A stretch of DNA of 64,000 nt, from the NCBI GenBank assembly GCA_963775315.1, contig CAVZIN010000007.1, forward strand, positions 393,193-457,192, in the 5' to 3' direction. This stretch comes from an uncultured Alphaproteobacteria bacterium. Its GTDB lineage: Bacteria; Pseudomonadota; Alphaproteobacteria; MPNO01; DASWLB01. Made by a program: the position numbers and the translations under genes. Below are positions 16,114 to 30,253 of this stretch, piece after piece (position 1 is the stretch's first letter; each line of letters begins with the position of its first letter). A model generated the notes under the pieces. The model saw only the letters and a program-made list of their open reading frames with translations. It was not told where the DNA came from and did not search any database.

Positions 16114-17355
16114 GTGCCGCAGCCCGGCCAGCCGCGCGCGCCCGGGCGGCTGTTCGCCGTCGCGCTGGCGTCGATCACCGTAATCGGCCCGCTCGCGGTA
16201 CATCTGTTCCTGCCGGCGATGCCGGCGGTGAAGCGGGATTTCGCGGTCTCCGAGTTGGTGGCGCAGCTCACCCTCAGCGTGCCGCTGTTCGGCATGGCGT
16301 TCCTCACTCTCGCTTACGGCTCGCTCTCGGACCGCTACGGAAGGCGCCCGACGCTGCTGTGGGGGATGGGGCTGTTCCTTGCCGGCACGGTTGCGTCGCT
16401 GATCGCGCAGAGCATCTGGCTGTTCATTGCCGGGCGGCTGTTGCAGGCGGCCGGGGCGGCGGCGGGGACGGCGCTGTCGCGCGCCATTGCCCGCGACGCC
16501 TATGGCGAGGACAGGCTGGTCAAGGCGATCGCCTACCTGACGATGGCCTACACGATCGGGCCGATGGTGGCGCCGCCGCTCGGCGGCGCGCTGGTCGATC
16601 ATTTCGGCTGGCGCGCCCTCTTCCTGCTGGCCCTGGGGGCGGGCGTGCTTGTCACGGTGCTCGCTTGGTTCGTGATCTACGAGACGCACCGCCCGAAGCG
16701 CGCGGTCGGCGAGGCGCTGTCGGTCGCGGCGAGCTACGTTCGGCTCTTCTCCAGCGCGCGCTTCACCGGCTTCGTCTGCCAGTCCGGCTTCTCGTCCGGC
16801 GCCTTCTTCGCGATCGCCGTGTCGGCGACCTACCTGATGCGCGACACGCTGCACCGGTCCGCGACCGAGTACGGGCTGTTCTTCCTCGGCATGCCGCTCG
16901 CCTTTACCTGCGGCACGTTCCTGGCCGGCCGGCTGTCGGGCCGGGCGGGAATCGAGAATATGGTGCTGACCGGCTCGCTGGTCTCGATCGTCGCCGTGTT
17001 CGTCCAGGCGGCGCTGGTGGTCGGGGGGCGGCTCGACCCCTACGTGATTTTCGTGCCGGGAATGGTGGTGACCTTCTCGCAGGGGATCGCGCTGCCCAAC
17101 GCGCAGGCCGGCGCGATCCGCGTCGTGCCGCACCTCGCCGGGACGGCCGCAGGGATCGGCTCGTTCATGTCGCTGTTCTTCGCGGCCGTCCTGACCGAGC
17201 TGGTGGGCGTGTTCGCGGACGGCACGCCCTACCCGATGGTGGCGCTCGCCTCGGCCTCGGCGACGCTGATGCTGATCGCGGGCGCGACGCCGTTCGTGCT
17301 CGCAAGGCGCGGCTGGGCGCGGCTCACGCCTTCCAGTCCACCTTCGCCCCGATGA
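16114..17355 (+). CDS. MFS transporter (Bcr/CflA drug-efflux-like)
   Basis: C-terminal 2/3 of the frame of ORF 14890..17355. 12-TM MFS with motifs LFAVALASITVIGPLAVHLFLPAMP and GSLSDRYGRRPTLL. Probable GTG start near 16114. The upstream 400 codons of the ORF are filler antisense to dctP. Confidence 0.75.
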   Translation: MPQPGQPRAPGRLFAVALASITVIGPLAVHLFLPAMPAVKRDFAVSELVAQLTLSVPLFGMAFLTLAYGSLSDRYGRRPTLLWGMGLFLAGTVASLIAQSIWLFIAGRLLQAAGAAAGTALSRAIARDAYGEDRLVKAIAYLTMAYTIGPMVAPPLGGALVDHFGWRALFLLALGAGVLVTVLAWFVIYETHRPKRAVGEALSVAASYVRLFSSARFTGFVCQSGFSSGAFFAIAVSATYLMRDTLHRSATEYGLFFLGMPLAFTCGTFLAGRLSGRAGIENMVLTGSLVSIVAVFVQAALVVGGRLDPYVIFVPGMVVTFSQGIALPNAQAGAIRVVPHLAGTAAGIGSFMSLFFAAVLTELVGVFADGTPYPMVALASASATLMLIAGATPFVLARRGWARLTPSSPPSPR

Positions 17356-17860
17356 GGATGAAGGCGATGGTGCAAGGCGCGTCGCCGCGGTTCGCCCAGG
17401 CATGGTTGCACGCGCCCTGGACCACCACGTCGCCGGCCTTGAGGTGCACCTCGTCCTCGTCCACCAGCATGTCGATCTCGCCAGAGAGGATGAGAGCGTA
17501 GTCGATCGAATGCGTCCGGTGCATGCCGGGGTGCTTGCCCTTGCCGAGCCGTCCGACCTCGACGCCGGTCGAACCGCGATGCGCGTCGGCGTCCGCCTCG
17601 CTGCGCGGCGGGTAGCTCTTCTCCGGCGGGATTTCCAGGATGCGGAAGATCGAGCCGGCGAGCGGCGGGTTGGTGCCCGTGATTTTCGCGGTGGGATCCG
17701 CCGTGCCCGGCAGATCGGCCGCCTCCTCCATGAACCAGATCTGCTGCGAGCGCGCGCCGGTGCGCGGGCGCACCTGCTCCTCCGGCACGTCGTCCCGCAG
17801 GATCACCGCCTTCCCGGCCGCGTCGTGACCGGTCACGACGCGGCGCACGTTGAGGGTCAT
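17324..17860 (-). CDS. Cupin domain protein (paralog A)
   Basis: ORF 17324..17860 minus. Conserved cupin C-terminus (..HPGMHRTHSIDYALILSGEIDMLVDE..VHLKAGDVVVQGACNHAWANRGD.PCTIAFILIGAK). Tandem paralog of the next gene. Confidence 0.7.
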   Translation of the reverse strand: MTLNVRRVVTGHDAAGKAVILRDDVPEEQVRPRTGARSQQIWFMEEAADLPGTADPTAKITGTNPPLAGSIFRILEIPPEKSYPPRSEADADAHRGSTGVEVGRLGKGKHPGMHRTHSIDYALILSGEIDMLVDEDEVHLKAGDVVVQGACNHAWANRGDAPCTIAFILIGAKVDWKA

Positions 17861-17911: not shown

Positions 17912-18451
17912 TCAGTAGCCCTGACCCGCCCACGGCACCTTGGCGCCGATCAGGATGAAGGCGATCGTGCAGGGCTTGTCGCCGCGGTTCGCCCAGGCGT
18001 GGTTGCAGGCGCCCTGGACGACGACGTCGCCCTTCTTCAGATGCACCTCCTTGTTGTCGTCGACCAGCATGTCGATCTCGCCGTCGAGGACGAGCGCGTA
18101 GTCGATCGATTCGGTGCGGTGCATGCCGGGGTGGCGCGCCTCGGGCCCGCCGAGCGACACGCCCATCGATTTGCGATGTTCGGCCGCGTTGGCGACGTGC
18201 GGGGCGGTCTTGTCCGGGGGGAACTCGATGATGCGGAAGATCGAGCCGTCCAAGGGCGGCGGCACCTTGGCGATCTTCTTCGCCGTGTCCTCGGTGGTCA
18301 TCACCGCCGGGGTCGTGTCGGTCATCCAGACATTGACGGTCTGGCTGCCGCCCGGGGCCCGCTGGATCACCGGCGGATGGTCGTCGATCGCGATGATCGC
18401 CTTGCCGTTCTTGTCGTCGGCCGAAACGACCCGTCGGACGGAGAGTGCCAT
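17912..18451 (-). CDS. Cupin domain protein (paralog B)
   Basis: ORF 17912..18451 minus. About 55-60% identical to paralog A over the full length. The C-terminal cupin barrel is nearly identical. Confidence 0.7.
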   Translation of the reverse strand: MALSVRRVVSADDKNGKAIIAIDDHPPVIQRAPGGSQTVNVWMTDTTPAVMTTEDTAKKIAKVPPPLDGSIFRIIEFPPDKTAPHVANAAEHRKSMGVSLGGPEARHPGMHRTESIDYALVLDGEIDMLVDDNKEVHLKKGDVVVQGACNHAWANRGDKPCTIAFILIGAKVPWAGQGY

Positions 18452-18611
18452 GTTCGTTCCCTTCCCTAGCCTCGCTGCGCCCCTGGCGCGCTGGCCGGAG
18501 TGAACCGGAACCGCGCGCCCGGGTCAATCGGGATGGGAAGGGTAGACTGCACGGGCCGGGGACGAGTGCGATGGACCGGCGTGGCAGGGTCCGGTATGGT
18601 CGGCGCGACAC

Positions 18612-20316
18612 ATGGACGGCTCGGCCACGCTGGGGGAACGCGCTGTGGTGAAGCTCGGCTCGATGGGCACTGCGGACGAGCGCAACCGCATTTGCCGCAT
18701 CGCCCTCGGTACGGCGCTTTGGGGCGCGCTGGCAGCATCCGTCCTGGCCGTGCCGCTCACCGGCTACCTGCTCGGAACGTTCCATTATACCCATGATTGG
18801 GGCGCCGCTCATGGGGCCGTGGTGGCCCGGAACTTCTGGCATTTCGGCATCGCGCAGCTCGGCGGGTTGCCGTATCACAACAATCCGCCCTTCACGAACC
18901 CGCCGGACGTTTATCTGAATTGGCCGCCGCTCGGAACGATCCTACTTGCGCTGGCCTATATCGATCGGCGGCCCCACGGTCCTAACGACGCATATGTACG
19001 GCGCAGCCATTCACCTGGCGATCGCCGGGCTCGTGTTCTGGATCGTGGACCGGGCGCGGGACCGCGTCTCGGCGGCGGTCGCGACCATCGTCTACCTCAA
19101 CGCCCCGCTAGTGGCGCGCTACGGCCATCTCGATCTCGGCCATTCGGCCCTGCTGTTTTGCATGCTGGCGCTTTGGTGCGTAGCGCGCGCAGCGGATGAG
19201 ACAGCCAGCCCGCAGGCCAAATTCCGGCTGAATGCGATCGGGGCCGTCTCGTTCGCGCTGGCCGAGCTTTGCACCTGGGAACCGGTCCTCGCGGTGCCGG
19301 GAATTGCGGCTTACGCCCTCCTGGCCCGCGACCGGCGCCTGTTCCGGTCGGCGATACTATTGGGAATTGCGGGAACGGTCGCCGTGGCGGCTGTCTTTGC
19401 TCTCTACGCCAGCCAGTCGCACGATTTCCTTGCTCGCATCTTGCTGCGAATCGTATATCGCGCCGGGTTCGGCAATCCGTACGGCGGCGACACGTCGCTG
19501 ATGGCGTCGCCCTATCTGATCTACGAGCTGGATACGGTCCAGCAGGGATGGTCAATACCCGTCTACATCTTCGACGTGTTCATTCTGCGGCTTTCCGTGC
19601 TCGGCCCCGTCGCAGTCTTCGGCTTGATCCTTGCCCTGTTTGCGCGGGCCTGGCTTTGGCGCGGCACCGGCCGCGTGATCCCCATCGTCTGTGTTGGGCT
19701 TGGGAGCATCTACGTGCTCTGGGCGATCGTCATGCGCAGCCAGATGGAAGGGCACGAATTCGAGGCCCGATTTATCACGCCTCTGGCTGCGCTTTGCGTT
19801 GGGCAACTCGTCTGGCGGCTCAGGACGATGACGTGGCCCTCCATAGCGGATTTGCGCCGAGGCGGTGGCGTCCTCGCCGTCGCCGTGTGCGTCGCGATTC
19901 CCGCTGTCGCGATGGTGTCGCGATCCTGGGATACGATCGATTTGATCCGGTACAACCGCGAGGGGCCGGTACGCGACATCGAGTTTCCGAAGGCGATCGC
20001 AAAAATTACGCCGCCCGACGCTATCGTGACTTATCCCGACGTCACTTACGTCCCGGTTTACTATATGAATCGGCACATCGTTCGCGGCATCGCCGACGAT
20101 AAGACCCTTGCTAAATATCGGAGCGCGATCGAGGCGCTTTGCCGCGACTGCCCGATCTACGTGGCGGTACCGAAGGGCGACATCGACAAGTTTTCCGGCC
20201 TCGATGTCGAAAGGAATGGAAAACCGGTCCCTCCCTGGGGGTGGATCGTGCCGTTGCGCACCTTCCCTCCGAAGGGTGTCGCCGCTCCCGCGCCGGCGAT
20301 TGGCAAGCCGGGCTAG
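18612..20316 (+). pseudogene. GT-C fold membrane glycosyltransferase (PMT_2/ArnT/YkcB-like), apparently disrupted by a frameshift near 18955-18965
   Basis: ORF 18612..19199 (frame 0) contains the hallmark loop-1 region ..FHYTHDWGAAHG..NWPPLGTILLALAY, then becomes Arg/Pro-rich filler. ORF 18946..20316 (frame +1) continues sensibly straight after (SIGGPTVLTTHMYGAAIHLAIAGLVFWIVDRA... with many TM helices and a C-terminal periplasmic domain). The two halves abut within a few codons. Confidence 0.55.
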
Positions 20317-20385
20317 CCGCGTGGCGCGGCTGGCGGGAGGAAGGGAACGTATGGCGCGGCGTCTTGTCGGGCGCGTGTGCGTCGC

Positions 20386-21648
20386 ATGACGATCCGGCTA
20401 CTCGTTACCACCACGACCTTTCCGTCGTTCGTGCCGGGGCACGTGACGCCGCCCTTCGTTTATGAGCTGTCGCGCCATCTGGCGCAACATCCCGATTTCG
20501 AGCTGATCGTGTCCACGCCGCACATCCGCGGTGCGGCGAGTTGCGAGGCTCGCGACGGGATGCGAATTCGTCGCTTCCGCTACGGCTTCGCCGCACTGTG
20601 TGACGGGGCAATCCTGCCCAACATCCGCAATAATCGTTGGCTCCTCGCCGAAGTCCCGTTCCTCCTCGCGTTCGCCTTCTTCGACTTGGTTCGCACGATC
20701 CGTCGCGAGCGTATCGATGTGGTTCATGCCCATTGGATCATCCCGCAGGGGTTGATCGCGGTCGCGGCCAAGATATTGCTGCGCGGCCGGCCGCTTCGTA
20801 TCATCTGCACGAGCCATGGCGCCGATGTCTACGGCCTTCGCTCGCTCGCACCGCTGAAGCGCTGGATCCTGGCGCATTGCGACCGCGCGACCGTGGTGTC
20901 GACACAGATGAAGGCAGAGCTGGAGCGTATCGGCGTGTGCATGCCGGGCCCGATCGAGGTCATCTCAATGGGCGTCGACAGCGACCGCTTTGCCCCCGGG
21001 CGCGCTGACGCCGCGCTGCGCCGGCGGTTCGGCATCGACGGCCCGTTCATCCTGTTCGTGGGTCGGCTGGCCGAAAAGAAGGGCGTGCGCTACTTGCTCG
21101 AGGCGATGCCGCCGGTCATCGGCGCGTTCCCGGCGGCCCGGCTGCTGGTTGTGGGCGACGGACCCGAGAAGGCGGCGCTGATGCGCAAGTCGCAGGAACT
21201 TGGCCTCTCCGACCGGGTCGTTTTCGCTGGCGCGGTGCCCAACGACGAGCTTCCGGCCTATTACGCCAGCGCCGACGTATTCGTCGGGCCCAGCATCGTG
21301 GCGCGCGACGGCGACCGCGAGGGCATGCCTGTCGCCTTTGTCGAGGCGATGTCGGCGAGCTGCGTCGTCGTTTCGACGGACCTTCCGGGGATCGAGGACC
21401 TGATCGCCGATGGCGTGTCGGGGTTCGTGGTGCGTCAGGCGGATGCCGGCGAGATCGCCGACCGGCTGCTGCAGGTGCTCGCCGCGCCCGAGCGGCTCGA
21501 CGCAATGAAGCGGCGGGCCCGCGAGGTGGTGGTCGCCCAGTTCGACTGGCGGGTCATCGCCGCCCGCTTCGCCGACGTGCTACGCGCCGCCTATTATTCG
21601 GGCGCGCCCGGCTTTCGGCCTACGAAGCAAAATGCGCCTGAGAACTGA
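20386..21648 (+). CDS. Glycosyltransferase family 4 (GT-B)
   Basis: ORF 20377..21648. GT4 signatures (..ILFVGRLAEKKGVRYLLEAM...VVGDGPEKAAL...EGMPVAFVEAMSASCVVVSTDLPGIEDLI..). Confidence 0.85.
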   Translation: MTIRLLVTTTTFPSFVPGHVTPPFVYELSRHLAQHPDFELIVSTPHIRGAASCEARDGMRIRRFRYGFAALCDGAILPNIRNNRWLLAEVPFLLAFAFFDLVRTIRRERIDVVHAHWIIPQGLIAVAAKILLRGRPLRIICTSHGADVYGLRSLAPLKRWILAHCDRATVVSTQMKAELERIGVCMPGPIEVISMGVDSDRFAPGRADAALRRRFGIDGPFILFVGRLAEKKGVRYLLEAMPPVIGAFPAARLLVVGDGPEKAALMRKSQELGLSDRVVFAGAVPNDELPAYYASADVFVGPSIVARDGDREGMPVAFVEAMSASCVVVSTDLPGIEDLIADGVSGFVVRQADAGEIADRLLQVLAAPERLDAMKRRAREVVVAQFDWRVIAARFADVLRAAYYSGAPGFRPTKQNAPEN

Positions 21649-22331
21649 AGCTTTACGAGATTGATATCACCCGCGTCCAAGCGAGCCATACGCCCGACGA
21701 TTTCGAGCGCCAGATAGAGCGCCGAGCGGCTGCGTAAGGGCTCTATGAACCGAGATCGGTTGCTAAGTTGGCGAATGATTGTGAAGGCGGCATCGTAACA
21801 ATGGTGGAGAGTTTCGGGAACTAAACCAGTCGCTTCCATTAAATATACCATTCCAAATGGCGTAAAATTGAACACGCTGAAAGAATGATAAGGCTCAAGA
21901 TAGGCGACCGAGCCGACAAAGTAACCGCCCGGCTTAAGGACGCGCACTACATCGCGCATCAGTGGGTGCGGCTCGCGAACATGCTCGAAAACCTGATGGC
22001 TATAGACGATGTCAAAATAATTCGCCTCATAGGGAAGGTTAATCCCATCGAAGCTGGTCATACCCGGCAAAGTCGCGGACCTTCCCTGCACTTCCGGGGA
22101 GTCTACGATGTCAACTCCCCGCCAAACGACGGTGGGATCTAAAGCGCGGAAGAATGCCGACGAGTTCCCTTCGCCACAGCCTAGATCAAGTACCGCGAGC
22201 CCTTCTCCGTAGCGCGAGTAGACTTCCGAGACAAGAGATTGAGCAAAGACGATCTGTGTGCTTGTCTCGTGCACGAGTTGACGAAGCCGATGGTAGCCCG
22301 GAACGCGCGTAATGGCCGATTTGAGTGACAT
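21594..22331 (-). CDS. Class I SAM-dependent methyltransferase
   Basis: ORF 21594..22424 minus. ATG at 22331 preceded by GGAGG. SAM-binding motif VLDLGCGEGNSS and ...VLKPGGYFVGS. GC about 50%, well below the window average. Confidence 0.75.
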   Translation of the reverse strand: MSLKSAITRVPGYHRLRQLVHETSTQIVFAQSLVSEVYSRYGEGLAVLDLGCGEGNSSAFFRALDPTVVWRGVDIVDSPEVQGRSATLPGMTSFDGINLPYEANYFDIVYSHQVFEHVREPHPLMRDVVRVLKPGGYFVGSVAYLEPYHSFSVFNFTPFGMVYLMEATGLVPETLHHCYDAAFTIIRQLSNRSRFIEPLRSRSALYLALEIVGRMARLDAGDINLVKLQFSGAFCFVGRKPGAPE

Positions 22332-22389
22332 CCAATTTTTTCCTCCGTGGCCGGATCGAGCGGCGCCGGTTGAGGCACTCGGTAGCAAG

Positions 22390-23199
22390 CTATACATCGT
22401 CCGTTCGAACATGTGCCACAGCAATATAGCCTTCTCCGAGATCTGATCTATAGAATACCCTTTGAAAAAGACAAAATGCCCCTAATATTAGGGCTGAAAA
22501 GCGGTTCGCGTAGACTGCAAAATGCTTGGCCTCGCTTAGCCGGTCAACGCCACTCACTGAAGTGCGGCCTTTTCTATCGTCTCGATCTAATTTTCTTTTC
22601 GAAAGCTTTGTACGAGAAATTGCCTCACGTATTGGGCGAAGTAAAGTCTGGAGAGGAAATCCGTAAGACCGTAGCTCAAGAAGCTCAAGGTGTGCCCCGG
22701 AAACGAGGGACTGAATATCTGCTTTGTCATAACGTCGAACATGCCCGGCCCATTCGTCGGACAAGCCCCAATGATTCCGATGAGCTGGCACCGTTAGGAT
22801 CACTACTCCTCCCGGCTTAAGGCAACGTAGCCAACTCCGCAGAGTTTCGCCGTCTGCTTCGATATGTTCCAGTACTTCTGACGAAAAAATAATATCGTAA
22901 GCGCCCCAGTCCTTTTCGGAAACGTCAGGAGCAATTTTGAATGCGCGTTCATCTCCGGCGTGGAAATGATAGGCAACAGATAACGCAGGAGCGGAGACGT
23001 CGACCCCTTTCCCTACGAACCCAAGACGTTCAAGGTCGAGTAAAAAAGCACCTGATCCGCAGCCGAATTCCAAGACTTTTCCGGGCGGAAACGATGCAAA
23101 CACGTCGATTAATGCTGACCGTCGGAGAATATGAGCAATAGTCGGCACCCAAGGCAGGGAGGTGTCATAAACGCCTAAGATATTCTGGTATCTTATCAT
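22390..23199 (-). CDS. Class I SAM-dependent methyltransferase
   Basis: ORF 22390..23199 minus. VLEFGCGSGAFLLDL...IIFSSEVLEHI...LKPGGVVILTVP (Methyltransf_11/23-like). GC about 48%. Confidence 0.8.
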   Translation of the reverse strand: MIRYQNILGVYDTSLPWVPTIAHILRRSALIDVFASFPPGKVLEFGCGSGAFLLDLERLGFVGKGVDVSAPALSVAYHFHAGDERAFKIAPDVSEKDWGAYDIIFSSEVLEHIEADGETLRSWLRCLKPGGVVILTVPAHRNHWGLSDEWAGHVRRYDKADIQSLVSGAHLELLELRSYGFPLQTLLRPIREAISRTKLSKRKLDRDDRKGRTSVSGVDRLSEAKHFAVYANRFSALILGAFCLFQRVFYRSDLGEGYIAVAHVRTDDV

Positions 23200-23204
23200 C
23201 TTCG

Positions 23205-24164
23205 TTATTTTGAAGTCGATGCGGCAGGTTCTGTTCTATGCAACATCAAGGCGAGCGACATCGGCAGCAAAACGAACATTGCAGTGACGCGCAATAAGGT
23301 AGTCGCTAGGAAGGCTGTCCCGGCCGCTACTCCCACCAAAGGCGCAAGGCCCGCGGCAACTCCTTCGCGGATTCCGAGACCGGCAGGCACAATGGACACT
23401 GCGCTGCCCAATACTCCCGATATGACAAGTGCCGATGCTTGACCGAAAGTGACCTCGCTATTGAAGCATGAGAGGCACAGGTAGGTAATGAAGGCATCCC
23501 CCAAAACCAAAGTAGCGCGGGTTAATATGAGAGAAAGAATCGTATAATATTTTGTGGAAATCTTTCGAATGATTGGAAGAAATAGTGCAAATATTAGGAT
23601 TCCGGCTGCGCAACATGCACCTCCGATCTCTTGGGAACCTAATCGATAAATCCAGTATCCCGCGTAGATGAAGGCGATCGAAAGCCACAACAAGCCAATT
23701 AATAGAGTTACGGTGGTGCCGTGACGGTACGTTGAGCCCGCTGACTTCAAGGCTGCAATACGGACCATCGTACCCCCGGGAAGAGGAAGCATGTTGGCCG
23801 CACTGCCGACTACTGTCGTTTCCACTGCCGTAAAAAATGGAATCCGCTTACCCAACAGTTTGGCAGATAGGGTGAATTCGATTGCGTTAAATACGACGAT
23901 AAAAGGCACCCCAATTCCAGCAACTAAAGCTAGAGGTCGGGGATCGATTCTGGCCAGGAGGTCGGGTTGGGAGCGCACTGAAAAATAGAGTCCGGCCGCC
24001 AACCCAAAGGTGGCAAGTCCCAGAACGGTGTTGCGTAGTTTTCGGTTGTGGAGGAGGCCGTCGTTGGCCTTCGTTGCAACAGTGCTGAAGGTCGCCGACA
24101 CGAATGATTTCAACTTCCGTTCTCCACGCGAACGTTTCCCATTCGGGAGTCTAGATGCTGGCAT
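23205..24164 (-). CDS. Flippase-like membrane protein (lysylphosphatidylglycerol-synthase TM-region family, UPF0104-like)
   Basis: ORF 23205..24164 minus. About 8 TM helices, no soluble domain, composition typical of the LPG_synthase_TM 'flippase-like' family that usually partners GT2 polyprenol-phosphate glycosyltransferases. Its 5' end overlaps the stop of the upstream GT2 by about 55 nt, so the start is uncertain. Confidence 0.65.
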   Translation of the reverse strand: MPASRLPNGKRSRGERKLKSFVSATFSTVATKANDGLLHNRKLRNTVLGLATFGLAAGLYFSVRSQPDLLARIDPRPLALVAGIGVPFIVVFNAIEFTLSAKLLGKRIPFFTAVETTVVGSAANMLPLPGGTMVRIAALKSAGSTYRHGTTVTLLIGLLWLSIAFIYAGYWIYRLGSQEIGGACCAAGILIFALFLPIIRKISTKYYTILSLILTRATLVLGDAFITYLCLSCFNSEVTFGQASALVISGVLGSAVSIVPAGLGIREGVAAGLAPLVGVAAGTAFLATTLLRVTAMFVLLPMSLALMLHRTEPAASTSK

Positions 24165-25156
24165 AATTGCGGGGCGGGGCCCTTGTCGCTAGTTGGTTGC
24201 AAATGACCGTCGTTGTCGGAGGCCAATTCCAGCGCCCGCACCTTCTCCAGCGTGATCTCGATGAGCTGCCGGTTGAAGTTCATCAGGTCGGCAACCAGCC
24301 CCACCATCCAGGCGATAAACGCCATCATCACCAGCACGCTGCCCAGCATGAGCGATTGGACGTGGCCCACGCCGGCGCCCTCGATGTAGTAGACGAGGAA
24401 GCGGACGATGGGGACCAGCCCAAGGATCAGCAGGATCGCGCCGATATAGAAGAACACCCGCAGAGGCTGGTACATCGCGTACATGCGCACGATGGTGGTG
24501 AGCTGGCGCTCGATGAAGCGCGGGATGCTCTTGAACAGGCGCGAGTCCCGGGTCTTCGGGTTGGTCTCCACCGGGACGGAGAGGACCGCCATGTGCTTCT
24601 TGCCCGCCTGGATCAGCATCTCGGTCGTGTAGCTGAACGGCGAGACGATATTGAGGCGGATGGCCGCGTCGCGCGATATGGCGCGGAAGCCGCTGACCGC
24701 GTCGGGAATGTCGATGCCGGCGAGCCGCTTGACTACGGCGCTGCCGAGACCCTGCAGCCTCTTTTTGAACGGCGAGAAATGGCCGATGCGCCCCGTCCGC
24801 CGGTCGCCGACGACGATGTCGGCCTGGCCGTCGAGAATCGGGCGGATCAGCCTGGGGATGTCCCAGCCGGCGTACTGGTTGTCGCCGTCGGTATTGACGA
24901 TGATGTCCGCCCCGCGCTTCAGGCATTCGTCGAGCCCGACGCGGAAGGTGCGCGCGAGACCGATATTTCGCTTGTTGCGTACGATGTGGTCGATGCCGAG
25001 CGCCCGGGCGACCTCGACGGTCTTGTCGGTCGAGCCGTCGTCGACGATCAGGATCTCGACCGCCGTAATGCCCTCGATGCTGCGCGGGATGTCCGCGACC
25101 GTTTCGGGGAGCGTGTGCTCCTCGTTGAAGCACGGGATCTGGACGATGAGCTTCAT
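24110..25156 (-). CDS. Glycosyltransferase family 2, GtrB/ArnC-like polyprenol-phosphate sugar transferase with C-terminal TM helices
   Basis: ORF 24110..25240 minus. Start at MKLIVQIPCFNEEHTL. Motifs DDGSTD, NTDGDNQY and DAVSGFRA. Two C-terminal TM helices as in GtrB/ArnC/DPM1-like enzymes. Confidence 0.85.
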   Translation of the reverse strand: MKLIVQIPCFNEEHTLPETVADIPRSIEGITAVEILIVDDGSTDKTVEVARALGIDHIVRNKRNIGLARTFRVGLDECLKRGADIIVNTDGDNQYAGWDIPRLIRPILDGQADIVVGDRRTGRIGHFSPFKKRLQGLGSAVVKRLAGIDIPDAVSGFRAISRDAAIRLNIVSPFSYTTEMLIQAGKKHMAVLSVPVETNPKTRDSRLFKSIPRFIERQLTTIVRMYAMYQPLRVFFYIGAILLILGLVPIVRFLVYYIEGAGVGHVQSLMLGSVLVMMAFIAWMVGLVADLMNFNRQLIEITLEKVRALELASDNDGHLQPTSDKGPAPQLCQHLDSRMGNVRVENGS

Positions 25157-25299
25157 CGGGCTGTCCCGGCAAGGCCGAAGCGGTACGGCACGTCCACTCC
25201 CTGCGCTCGAGCGCAGTCTCGCGCGCGATACATGACGCACTCTCGGGCCGGTGGCAAGGGAAGAAGGCCCCGGATGCGCTCCTCTTAGCGTCAGCCGCC

Positions 25300-27903: not shown

Positions 27904-27934
27904 TGCGAACTGGGGATTCGGCTAAACTGGCGCG

Positions 27935-29221
27935 ATGGACGCTTCCGGTCACGATCCGGGTTTCGACCGCGCGCTGACCCGGGAGATCCTTGCCAGCGAG
28001 ATCCTGCGCGCCGGGGTGATGACGGCGACGCTGGGCGGCCTTCTCGTGTTCGTGACGGCCGCCTTCGCCATCGGCCACGATGTGTTTCAGCGGTTCGCAG
28101 GGAAGCCCATCTCGGCGCTCCTTCCGGTCTACGTCGTCGGGCCGTTCTTCATCTACGAGTGCGCGTTCCTGATTGGGTTACGGATGTTCGCGGCGCGCGG
28201 CCGGCCGCCGCCGCGTCCGGCGCCCTACGGGAACGCCATCGTCGAGACCAGCCTGCCGTCGGTGATCCTCCTGGTCGCGAGCGGCTATGCCGATCCCACG
28301 GTCATCTTTGGCGGATGGCCGGTGTTTCTCTATTTCGTCTTCATCCTGGCCGCGACCCTCCGCCTCAACTTAGCCTTGCCGATGCTGACCGGCGTCGTCG
28401 CGGGTGCCGAGTACATGGCCGTCGCCGCCTATGTGTTTCCGCTGTCGTTCTCGGCCGACCGGGCGGAGCTGATACCCGTCTTCCACCTCGGCCGGGTGGC
28501 CATCATGCTGATCGCGGGACTGGTCGCCGGTCTTGTGGCCATGCGGCTCCGCGCTAACTTGGTCCGCGTCCTCGAGGAATCGGCGGAACGGGACCGGGTG
28601 ACCGCGCTGTTCGGCCAGCACGTCTCGCCATCGGTGGTCGACCGGCTGCTCGACGCCAATGTCGGAACGGAGGGAGAGGCACGCCAGGTTTGCATCCTGT
28701 TCCTCGACTTCCGCGACTTCACGGCGTTCGCGCGCCAGCGCACGCCCGAGGAGGTGGTCGATTTTCTGAACCGTTCCTTCGCCTTCATGATCGAGGCGGT
28801 CGACCACCATCAGGGGATCATCAATAAGTTCCTCGGCGACGGCTTCATGGCGACCTTCGGCGCGCCGCTCACCGACCCCGACGCCGCGACCCACGCGGTC
28901 GCGACCGCCCGCGAGATCCTGGCCGAAATGGACCGCCGCGCGGCGCCCGGCGGCACCGGGCTCAGGGTCGGCATCGGCATCCATGTCGGCGTCGCGGTGA
29001 CCGGCTCCATCGGCTCGCCGCGCCGCAAGGAGTTCACGGTCATCGGCGACATCGTGAACCTCGCGGCACGCATCGAGCAGCTCAACAAGGAGTTCGGCTC
29101 GCGTCTCCTGGTCTCGCAAGCGGTCGCCGACGCGATCGGGGCCGGGCTCGGCGGTGCCGGACCCTTGCAGGCCGAGGTGAAGGGCTATGCCGACCCGATC
29201 GCGGTCTGGCGGCTCGACTGA
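27935..29221 (+). CDS. Membrane-anchored class III adenylate/guanylate cyclase
   Basis: ORF 27935..29221. N-terminal polytopic domain, C-terminal CYCc domain (..ILFLDFRDFTAF...FLGDGFMATFGAP...GIGIHVGVAVTGSIGS..). Confidence 0.8.
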   Translation: MDASGHDPGFDRALTREILASEILRAGVMTATLGGLLVFVTAAFAIGHDVFQRFAGKPISALLPVYVVGPFFIYECAFLIGLRMFAARGRPPPRPAPYGNAIVETSLPSVILLVASGYADPTVIFGGWPVFLYFVFILAATLRLNLALPMLTGVVAGAEYMAVAAYVFPLSFSADRAELIPVFHLGRVAIMLIAGLVAGLVAMRLRANLVRVLEESAERDRVTALFGQHVSPSVVDRLLDANVGTEGEARQVCILFLDFRDFTAFARQRTPEEVVDFLNRSFAFMIEAVDHHQGIINKFLGDGFMATFGAPLTDPDAATHAVATAREILAEMDRRAAPGGTGLRVGIGIHVGVAVTGSIGSPRRKEFTVIGDIVNLAARIEQLNKEFGSRLLVSQAVADAIGAGLGGAGPLQAEVKGYADPIAVWRLD

Positions 29222-29255: not shown

Positions 29256-29440
29256 TCAAGCTCCGTCCTGGTCGCCCGGCCCGATCTCCTCGACCGGACC
29301 GCCCCAGAGCTGTACCCGCCCGAACCCCGACGTCACGATCAGCGTCTGTCCCAGCGGGCGGGGTCGGGCGCCTCGAAAAGGGGGTCGACGCGCACGGTGC
29401 CGGTGAAGTGGGCCTCCGGCCCCTTGCCGGACGGCCGTGA
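29256..29440 (-). pseudogene. Degraded remnant of a small cupin-domain gene
   Basis: Minus-strand frames give ..[19 protein letters not shown].. and, in another frame, ..[29 protein letters not shown].. followed by a premature stop. Both are classic motifs of ~130-aa cupins, but the segment between them is deleted or frameshifted and the C-terminal His ligands are missing. Confidence 0.4.
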
Positions 29441-30253
29441 ACCGTTTCGCGCGATGTCCATGGTCGTTCCCCTCAAGCGGGGGTGACGGGGATATGGGAT
29501 CGGTTGCGACGCGGCGCCAACGCGCCCGCAGGAACTTCGTCGGCCATGACGGCATCGATCTGCGCCTGCCCACCCATGGCGGGCGTCCGCGTGGGAGTGA
29601 AGTGGTCGATGTCCGCCAGCACGTATAGCGATCGGCTAGCGATCGGCGCCAGACATCGCCGCCAGCCTGAAATCAATCATGGGCGGGCGCCCACGCACTC
29701 CCGCCATCCTATGCCATACCCGGCCCAACTGGCCAAAGAGGGGGCAGGATTGGCATGGGCGAGTTCCCACCGTGACTTGGGATGACTTCGATTTTATCTC
29801 GGTTGACTCTTTGTGCAATTCGATGAAGACTTGGCACCGCCGAATATGATTTCGGTCGGTCCGGAGATACGCTGGCACCCTACCGGATCGGCTGGGCACG
29901 CGTGGCGCCGGCCCTTCGGGGCCGGTCCCGCGGCGCCCCCGCCAGCCCCCTCTCCCGTAGCGCGCGCAAATCCCTTCCGTCGTTCCGGCGCTTCTTCCGC
30001 GCGCCGACAGGCGCCGCTGCCTGACCGGCCGTCATCCGGTGGTCACGCGGCTGCCGCATCCTGCGCGGGGGCGCGCCGGTGCGCTTCTTAGGGGCGTTTT
30101 CGAGCCGTCTGGCGCGCTTAATTGCCTGTCAAAGGGCGGGATTCGGTCCAATCGGGCTCGTTTCTGGCGCCAAATGGTGGCATTTCGGGGCCACCCCCCT
30201 TCCATCCGGGGTGGCACGCGCCCAATTGTGGCGGTATGGTGCGTACGGATGGA

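Follow-up and report, generated by a model that had tools for sequence, protein, structure and literature searches.

Among the described GT-C glycosyltransferases, the closest counterpart of the protein discussed here is ArnT, the undecaprenyl-phosphate-L-Ara4N:lipid A transferase (PDB 5EZM/5F15, CAZy GT83), in which an N-terminal polytopic part is followed by a C-terminal soluble domain. The conserved features of the GT-C clan include an Asp just after the first transmembrane helix (TM1; D55/E56 in ArnT). In addition, E84/K85-PPL of ArnT has a role in lipid-phosphate and metal binding, and K85, the loop-1 residue before PPL, contacts the lipid phosphate (PMC7801869). In three-component Gtr systems, a GT-C enzyme is accompanied by the flippase GtrA and the GT2 glycosyltransferase GtrB. 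D-arabinofuranosyl systems use a UbiA-type phosphoribosyltransferase (e.g., the mycobacterial DPA pathway and the TfpW cluster of P. aeruginosa), and we take them to resemble the operon in which close relatives of the gene described below reside. To our knowledge, no split GT-C enzyme has been described.

The gene lies in a 64-kb stretch of DNA that was analysed as a whole and is referred to as the window. Its coding capacity is divided between two same-strand ORFs that are open in different frames (Table 1). The sensible portion of ORF A ends with ...NWPPLGTILLALAY and is followed by Arg/Pro-rich nonsense up to the stop; at this place the translation reads ...PDVYLNWPPLGTILLALAY and then IDRRPHGPNDAYVRRSHSPGDRRARVLDRGPGAGPRL..., rich in Arg, Pro and Gly. 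Frame +1 offers the continuation SIGGPTVLTTHMYGAAIHL..., which runs to the end of ORF B, and the translation of ORF B is LRWPISIGGPTVLTTHMYGAAIHLAIAGLVFWIV.... The third-position GC content is high in frame 0 to ~18940 and thereafter in frame +1, and it drops to 0.48-0.55 for frame 0 in the tail of ORF A, which shows no homology to any family member. The switch from frame 0 to frame +1 described in an earlier note on this DNA is thus seen both in the ORFs and in the base composition. The N-terminal sensible part encodes predicted TM1, periplasmic loop 1 with the family-invariant PD(V/A)YLNWPPL, and TM2, and starts at either ATG 18612 or ATG 18663, the choice between the two being uncertain. 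The C-terminal sensible part comprises TM3 onward and a C-terminal alpha/beta domain, and carries the invariant (S/T)(M/Y)VPVYY..RH and C..C motifs.

Table 1. Coordinates of the two reading frames, the frameshift site and neighboring features in the window.
Feature	Position	Strand	Remarks
ORF A	18612..19199	+	Frame 0; sensible start, stop at 19199
ORF B	18919 (open after TGA) to 20316	+	Frame +1
TGA stop in frame +1	18916-18918	+	Upstream bound on the shift position
N-terminal sensible part	18612..18959	+	Frame 0, ~116-117 codons; 40-49% identity to relatives
Frameshift site	18949..18964	+	One extra nucleotide, frame 0 to +1; family-HMM deletion scan, gap-free alignments
Out-of-frame tail of ORF A	18963..19199	+	~78 codons, Arg/Pro/Gly-rich, ends at frame-0 stop
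C-terminal sensible part	18960..20316	+	Frame +1, ~450 codons
Variable glycan-gene island	18538..25297		Flanked by the conserved cupin genes and usg-groES-groEL; different gene content in each related assembly
GT4-family glycosyltransferase (Glycos_transf_1/Glyco_transf_4)	20377..21648	+	Intact; directly downstream of the GT-C gene
Two SAM-methyltransferase genes	21594-22424 and 22390-23199	-	Intact; low-GC stretch
LPG_synthase_TM ("flippase-like") polytopic membrane protein	23205..24164	-	Intact
GT2 glycosyltransferase	24110..25240	-	C-terminus with two hydrophobic segments; architecture resembles GtrB/ArnC, judged by reading
Cupin remnant (multi-lesion pseudogene)	29271-29461		Internal deletion and truncation; 10 kb from the GT-C gene

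The start of ORF A and ORF B are one gene, which is split by a single extra base. A protein search with the joined protein yielded five full-length relatives of 517-541 aa (E 1e-97 to 1e-48, 30-40% identity). Six further loci, in Rhizobiaceae and Hoeflea MAGs, came from a scan of GTDB species-representative genomes, and 24 more from a metagenome scan. The repaired protein shows no gap at the junction in an alignment of 12 sequences and, subsequently, of 30 sequences (29 full-length relatives and the window). Each junction-covering relative that was checked for an intact gene has a single uninterrupted ORF (~500-570 aa), except L026, a very divergent 2-kb metagenome contig (29% identity) that contains stops. 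Furthermore, an exhaustive profile search returned at least 164 clusters at 50% identity (E <= 1e-30), nearly all of which are 500-570 aa long and align continuously between profile positions of about 15 and 530. Neither the protein search nor the scans of GTDB species representatives and metagenomes nor the exhaustive HMM search gave a relative above 44-50% identity.

The joined protein also has the residues expected of the family. Of the 72 positions at which the other 11 close relatives all agree, 58 are unchanged in it and the remaining 14 carry conservative substitutions only; the intact but divergent member P0006, with differences at 12 of 70, is comparable in this respect. The motifs PD.Y.(N/H)WPPL, (S/T)WEP, RxxxRxG, VPVYY..RH and C..C are all found in the full-length, gap-free alignment. 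The joining of the two halves is far beyond chance. Given the single-ORF relatives, the gap-free junction and the family score of the repaired protein (see below), the proposal of the earlier note that an indel splits one transferase gene holds. The gene as assembled cannot make the enzyme: the product of ORF A as written would consist of TM1, periplasmic loop 1 and TM2 with 78 nonsense residues appended, and the product of ORF B as written would be devoid of TM1, loop 1 and TM2 and would come from a reading frame with no visible ribosome-binding site. The correct annotation is one frameshifted GT-C gene with 567 codons after repair, and not a 440-aa product translated from an internal Met.

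Several lines of evidence place the repaired protein among the ArnT-like enzymes. ORF B alone matches Pfam PMT_2 (PF13231) weakly (19.8 bits, profile positions 26-154), while the repaired protein reaches 24.6 bits (E 3.3e-5) over positions 3-154 of 160, an alignment that crosses the junction but stays below the gathering cut-off of 26.1 bits. Eleven of 12 family members match PMT_2 (best E 1.7e-9). As its relatives match and the window protein falls under the cut-off, the latter is best described as a distant relative of PMT_2 and not as a scored member. NCBIfam models gave no match and a profile search of PDB sequences gave noise only. An AlphaFold model of the repaired protein, built from an alignment of six sequences (pTM 0.75, mean pLDDT 69), begins with helices at residues 21-56, 62-78 and 106-119. 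In a Foldseek search of the PDB with this model, ArnT (5f15/5ezm) ranked top (E 3e-7, TM 0.57-0.59 over the full length); the first 31 matches were all GT-C enzymes, and ArnT was followed by STT3, PglB, AglB, ALG12/9/3, AftA, DPY19 and Pmt4. The GT-C/PMT_2-like identity suggested by the earlier note is thus supported by structure as well as by the PMT_2 alignment across the junction and the PMT_2 matches of the family. Taken together, 18612-20316 is predicted to be the gene for a 567-residue ArnT-like GT-C membrane glycosyltransferase of a small, un-named, PMT_2-related family.

To locate the lesion, a family HMM was built from 29 relatives with the window sequence excluded, and all single-base deletions between 18919 and 19000 were scored. 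The best repair is the deletion of one base at 18955-18958, which gives 447.5 bits. Scores remain within 3-4 bits of this peak across a plateau that defines the frameshift site in Table 1, and all of it falls within 18930-18975, the interval proposed earlier. Deletions in the CCCC run at 18972-18975 score ~434 bits, ~13 bits below the peak, and repairs by insertion of two bases score 6 bits below those by deletion of one base. The extra base lies within GGCC-TATAT, and the sequence of the site, GGCCTATATCGATCGG, contains no homopolymer, so that the absence of homopolymers noted before is correct right at the site, with the nearby CCCC run giving the poorer repair. The repaired protein has 567 aa with the junction between ...LALAY and SIGGPT.... 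A repair to 568 aa with an extra Ile was rejected because the Pfam match was lost and a gap was needed in the alignment; deletion of one base cured both. Residue 117/118, where the frame breaks, is at the cytoplasmic end of predicted TM2 (helix 106-119) and 12-13 residues past NWPPL. Hence, the earlier statement that the break comes exactly after the loop motif is only approximately right.

The split gene is part of an island of glycan-related genes, and the other five genes of the island are intact. Its GC content is 49-57% over 21.5-24.5 kb vs 68% in the whole window. The GT2 glycosyltransferase is a candidate maker of a lipid-phosphate-sugar donor, i.e., it would load a sugar onto polyprenyl phosphate in the cytoplasm. 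The flippase-like protein would then move the polyprenyl-phosphate-sugar across the membrane, and the GT-C enzyme would be the periplasmic transferase of the island that uses the flipped donor, the usual order of events in such systems. In this layout, the window offers a GT2 enzyme, a flippase-like protein and a GT-C enzyme where the three-component systems have GtrB, GtrA and a GT-C enzyme. In contrast, intact close relatives of the GT-C gene are at the end of a UbiA-GtrA-methyltransferase-GT-C operon (L001 and L003-L011, with UbiA also in L019-L022), an arrangement that may resemble UbiA-type D-arabinofuranosyl systems, whereas neither UbiA nor GtrA is found anywhere within the 64-kb window. 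No DprE1/DprE2-like genes were seen adjoining the relatives examined. Judged by analogy, both the layout of the relatives and that of the window would fit a donor that is synthesized in the cytoplasm, moved across the membrane and consumed on the periplasmic side.

Four related metagenome contigs (L032-L035; ENA/NCBI), which were reached via the neighboring cupin protein, allow comparison with close counterparts of the window. They are syntenic with it at 80-93% nucleotide identity on both flanks, which carry cupin-MFS-DctPQM and usg-groES-groEL, respectively. The cupin-usg interval differs in each of them, and we therefore regard the window gene as part of a strain-variable glycan island. PMT_2-type genes are present in the interval in at least L033, L034 and L035; a direct comparison of the L033 gene with the window gene revealed no sequence similarity. 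Even L032 and L034, whose flanks are 97-99% identical, have different islands. The sibling contigs carry Flye-style names (contig_NNNNN) and apparently stem from one metagenome series. Conserved genes in them are disrupted by numerous single-base insertions that are uncompensated and lie outside homopolymers: groEL of L034 has nine extra bases, further insertions are found in cupin, DctM and MFS genes of the siblings, and ~31 indels of one or two bases separate L034 from L032 over 17 kb. These insertions are a lesion of the same type and sign as that of the window, and they illustrate clearly how a gene can be made to look like a pseudogene by single-base insertions in a long-read metagenome assembly.

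Several explanations of the frame break were weighed. Two unrelated neighboring ORFs, with a true gene that begins at an internal Met, might be considered since the protein collection has only a 440-aa product (P0001, 100% identical, on a 2,061,376-bp contig), in which ORF B is called from the internal ATG 18994, and since several family representatives begin at profile positions ~115-118. However, the upstream 117 codons are related to the N-termini of the family at the identity given in Table 1, including the most conserved motif, and the alignments to PMT_2 and to the family HMM both cross the junction. Moreover, both short homologs that were checked proved to be artefacts: P0079 is truncated at the edge of a 1.4-kb contig, and P0146 has a mis-called start, with an in-frame ORF that begins 357 nt upstream and encodes a complete N-terminus. 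A family that truly starts downstream, the scenario that the earlier note had named as fatal to its reading, is rejected on these grounds, and the probability of two separate genes is practically negligible. A genuine and functional frameshift, be it programmed +1 recoding, a phase-variable on/off switch or an enzyme made of two polypeptides (TM1-loop-TM2 and the rest), deserves mention because the glycan-modifying gene sits in a variable island. Glycan-modifying genes in such islands are classic targets of phase variation. In addition, a 12-nt imperfect inverted repeat (18922-18933/18962-18973) brackets the site. Its 5' arm lies upstream of the site, though, and therefore the repeat cannot be a downstream stimulator; as the extra base is also outside both arms, we treat the repeat as a chance occurrence, and a quasi-palindromic mutational hotspot is rejected because the arms exclude the extra base. 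The site offers neither a slippery codon pair nor a frame-0 stop close by nor a rare-codon pause, and it has no homopolymer or A/T run for transcriptional slippage and no simple-sequence tract beyond TATAT. The lack of a slippery site makes recoding unlikely, and together with the lack of a repeat tract it led us to reject programmed frameshifting and phase variation. Furthermore, no Shine-Dalgarno-like sequence precedes TTG 18946 or ATG 18994, and a shift or split at this place is absent from all intact relatives examined, the apparent short homologs being the contig end and the mis-called start described above. A functional frameshift is thus highly improbable. Still less probable, in our view, is a genuine extra base in a locus that remains in use, either as a reversible surface-glycan switch or as a naturally split GT-C enzyme with a separate TM1-EL1-TM2, and we would grant anything exotic a very small chance at best.

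The lesion is ordinary either way, a consensus error or a very recent inactivating mutation. Long-read assembly artefacts and ordinary frameshift pseudogenes look alike here, since in both cases a single-base indel gives two adjacent ORFs on the same strand. Both halves are open (117 and ~450 codons) and conserved residues are kept, so that the lesion must have arisen very recently if it exists at all. There is about an even chance that long-read metagenome assembly introduced the extra base as a consensus error, in which case the gene of the organism would be intact. The error-prone sibling assemblies show dozens of lesions of the same type, and the window presumably comes from the same kind of assembly. 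There is no other decay in the gene, with invariant residues retained in both halves. In addition, the island differs even between strains that are 99% identical, and strain-specific read depth and consensus quality would be expected to be lowest there. On the other hand, comparison with the siblings over ~17 kb of coding sequence reveals no uncompensated indel in the window, and a crude scan of the reading frames by GC3 across the full 64 kb showed no other frame switch without a stop, which argues that the contig is not generally error-ridden. A consensus error is further disfavored by genuine decay nearby, accessory-island genes being commonly inactivated, and by the absence from the window of the usual partners of the family (UbiA, GtrA and methyltransferase), which could mean relaxed selection. 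We assign a probability slightly short of even to a genuine, very recent +1 insertion, which would make the GT-C gene a young pseudogene that is possibly tolerated since the partners of its donor pathway are missing. The frame break is present in the sequence, no other one is found in the rest of the 64 kb, and its site is not a homopolymer, which speaks against the commonest error mode of long reads. Likewise, a true pseudogene with multiple lesions, the cupin remnant, is located nearby (Table 1), the gene belongs to a strain-variable island that is exchanged horizontally and includes a low-GC segment, and close family members are always behind UbiA-GtrA-methyltransferase genes while the window is without UbiA or GtrA. 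However, a young pseudogene has to be reconciled with the absence of a second lesion in 1.7 kb and the invariant residues kept on both sides, so that a genuine event would have to be very recent, and with a single-base insertion outside any repeat. Natural bacterial indels favor deletions and repeat tracts. It is also disfavored by the five intact genes in the rest of the island and by the sibling assemblies, in which exactly this type of lesion is an evident error. On balance, an artefact is at least as likely as a real mutation, and biological conclusions from the frame break should await its confirmation by reads. If it is real, the strain would only just have been deprived of the final, periplasmic step of one glycan-modification pathway in a hypervariable surface-glycan island, which would be common and unsurprising.

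The family itself differs from ArnT in several respects. The window protein resembles ArnT in size and in the succession of an N-terminal polytopic part and a C-terminal soluble domain, and both share the ..PPL that closes the first periplasmic loop, at the place of E84/K85-PPL in ArnT. Yet the overall identity is only ~14%, the family has NW instead of EK before PPL, and the Asp that follows TM1 (D55 in ArnT) is not conserved. At this position, some members have D, the Hoeflea clade has N, the window has H and distant members have A, T or G. In the motif WxSA(H/D), D alternates with H. D99 in PD(V/A)Y is invariant in the 12 closest members, whereas some of the distant ones lack it. The loop had been termed catalytic in the earlier note. 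The ..WPPL motif is conserved in the family but the canonical Asp after TM1 is not, and the loop is therefore only putatively catalytic. The change from Asp to His in the window was considered as a sign of decay and rejected, because the position varies among intact members of the family. In comparison with bacterial GT-C proteins of the PMT_2/YkcB type, the window family forms a group of its own, and the recognition of these at least 164 clusters at 50% identity as an un-named ArnT-like GT-C family, usually encoded behind UbiA-GtrA-methyltransferase genes, is a modestly useful by-product of the analysis.

The close relatives of the window's transferase, an ArnT-like GT-C protein whose gene is split by one extra base in the assembled sequence, are always preceded by genes of the UbiA prenyltransferase, GtrA and Methyltransf_23 families. 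These four genes, UbiA-GtrA-Methyltransf_23-GT-C, form a conserved operon. The GT-C family to which it belongs is un-named, has no model in NCBIfam and comprises 164 or more clusters when grouped at 50% identity. Where these close relatives carry Y(D/N)YxH(A/G)W, the window protein reads FHYTHDW (window 18783-18800, residues 58-63 of the conceptually repaired protein), and its acidic residue lies four positions later than theirs; across the wider family, this position is not constant. The frameshift site is flanked by a 12-nt inverted repeat of 92% complementarity (window 18922-18933 and 18962-18973), in which the arm at the WPPL codons pairs with the arm at the SIGGP codons. Given DNA of 68% GC, we judged this repeat to be due to chance.

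Two further family members appear short or broken. The family representative P0146 (411 aa) has a mis-called start: the in-frame ORF of its locus begins at 2644 and includes the complete N-terminal part. Just upstream is an IS (rve) transposase. The matched span of a distant member on a small metagenome contig (L026) contains six stops when read in one frame, and may represent either another broken copy or several HSPs in different frames.

In the sibling metagenome contigs (L032-L035), which are syntenic with the window around the glycan-gene island, conserved genes are split by many single-base insertions in non-homopolymer context. The groEL gene of L034 is in two pieces and carries nine extra bases, cupin, DctM and MFS genes are likewise hit, and L034 differs from L032 by approximately 31 small indels over 17 kb. 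These insertions look like long-read consensus error.

Coordinates of the features discussed
Feature	Location	Strand	Remarks
Glycan-gene island	window 18538-25297		between conserved cupin genes and usg-groES-groEL
Sibling counterparts of the island	L032 5719-9921; L033 1-9923		equivalents in L034, L035
Tandem cupin paralogs	window 17324-17860 and 17912-18451	-	divergent, upstream of transferase gene
Cupin gene remnant	window 29271-29461	-	intact counterpart of 129 aa in L032, L034
UbiA-GtrA-Methyltransf_23-GT-C operon	L001 7604-11554; L004 7596-11596		also L003, L005-L011
Full-length in-frame ORF of P0146	L036 2644-4236		full N-terminus encoded, start at 2644
Distant family member	L026 649-1993		2.2-kb metagenome contig; 29% identity
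Insertion-bearing regions	L034 4018-5986; L035 10001-10255 and 14768-15544; L032 11065-12561

The stretch from the cupin genes to usg-groES-groEL is a hypervariable glycan-gene island. The GT2, GT-C, methyltransferase and flippase-like genes that it contains differ contig by contig among the window and its four siblings, and its content is unlike between L032 and L034 despite flanks that are 97-99% identical. PMT_2-type genes occur within the island in L033, L034 and L035; of these, the L033 gene was compared directly with the window transferase gene and is not similar to it in sequence. Moreover, GC content falls to 49-57% at window 21500-24500, compared with 68% window-wide, over two methyltransferase genes and an LPG_synthase_TM-type gene, suggesting that this sub-segment of the island was acquired more recently.

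The two tandem cupin paralogs upstream of the transferase gene share approximately 78-80% nucleotide identity and are kept in all sibling contigs. A separate cupin remnant is a genuine multi-lesion pseudogene: what survives is residues 1-36 and 55-84, each in its own frame, without the C-terminus. It adjoins a gene of 431 aa (window 27926-29221) that L032 does not carry.
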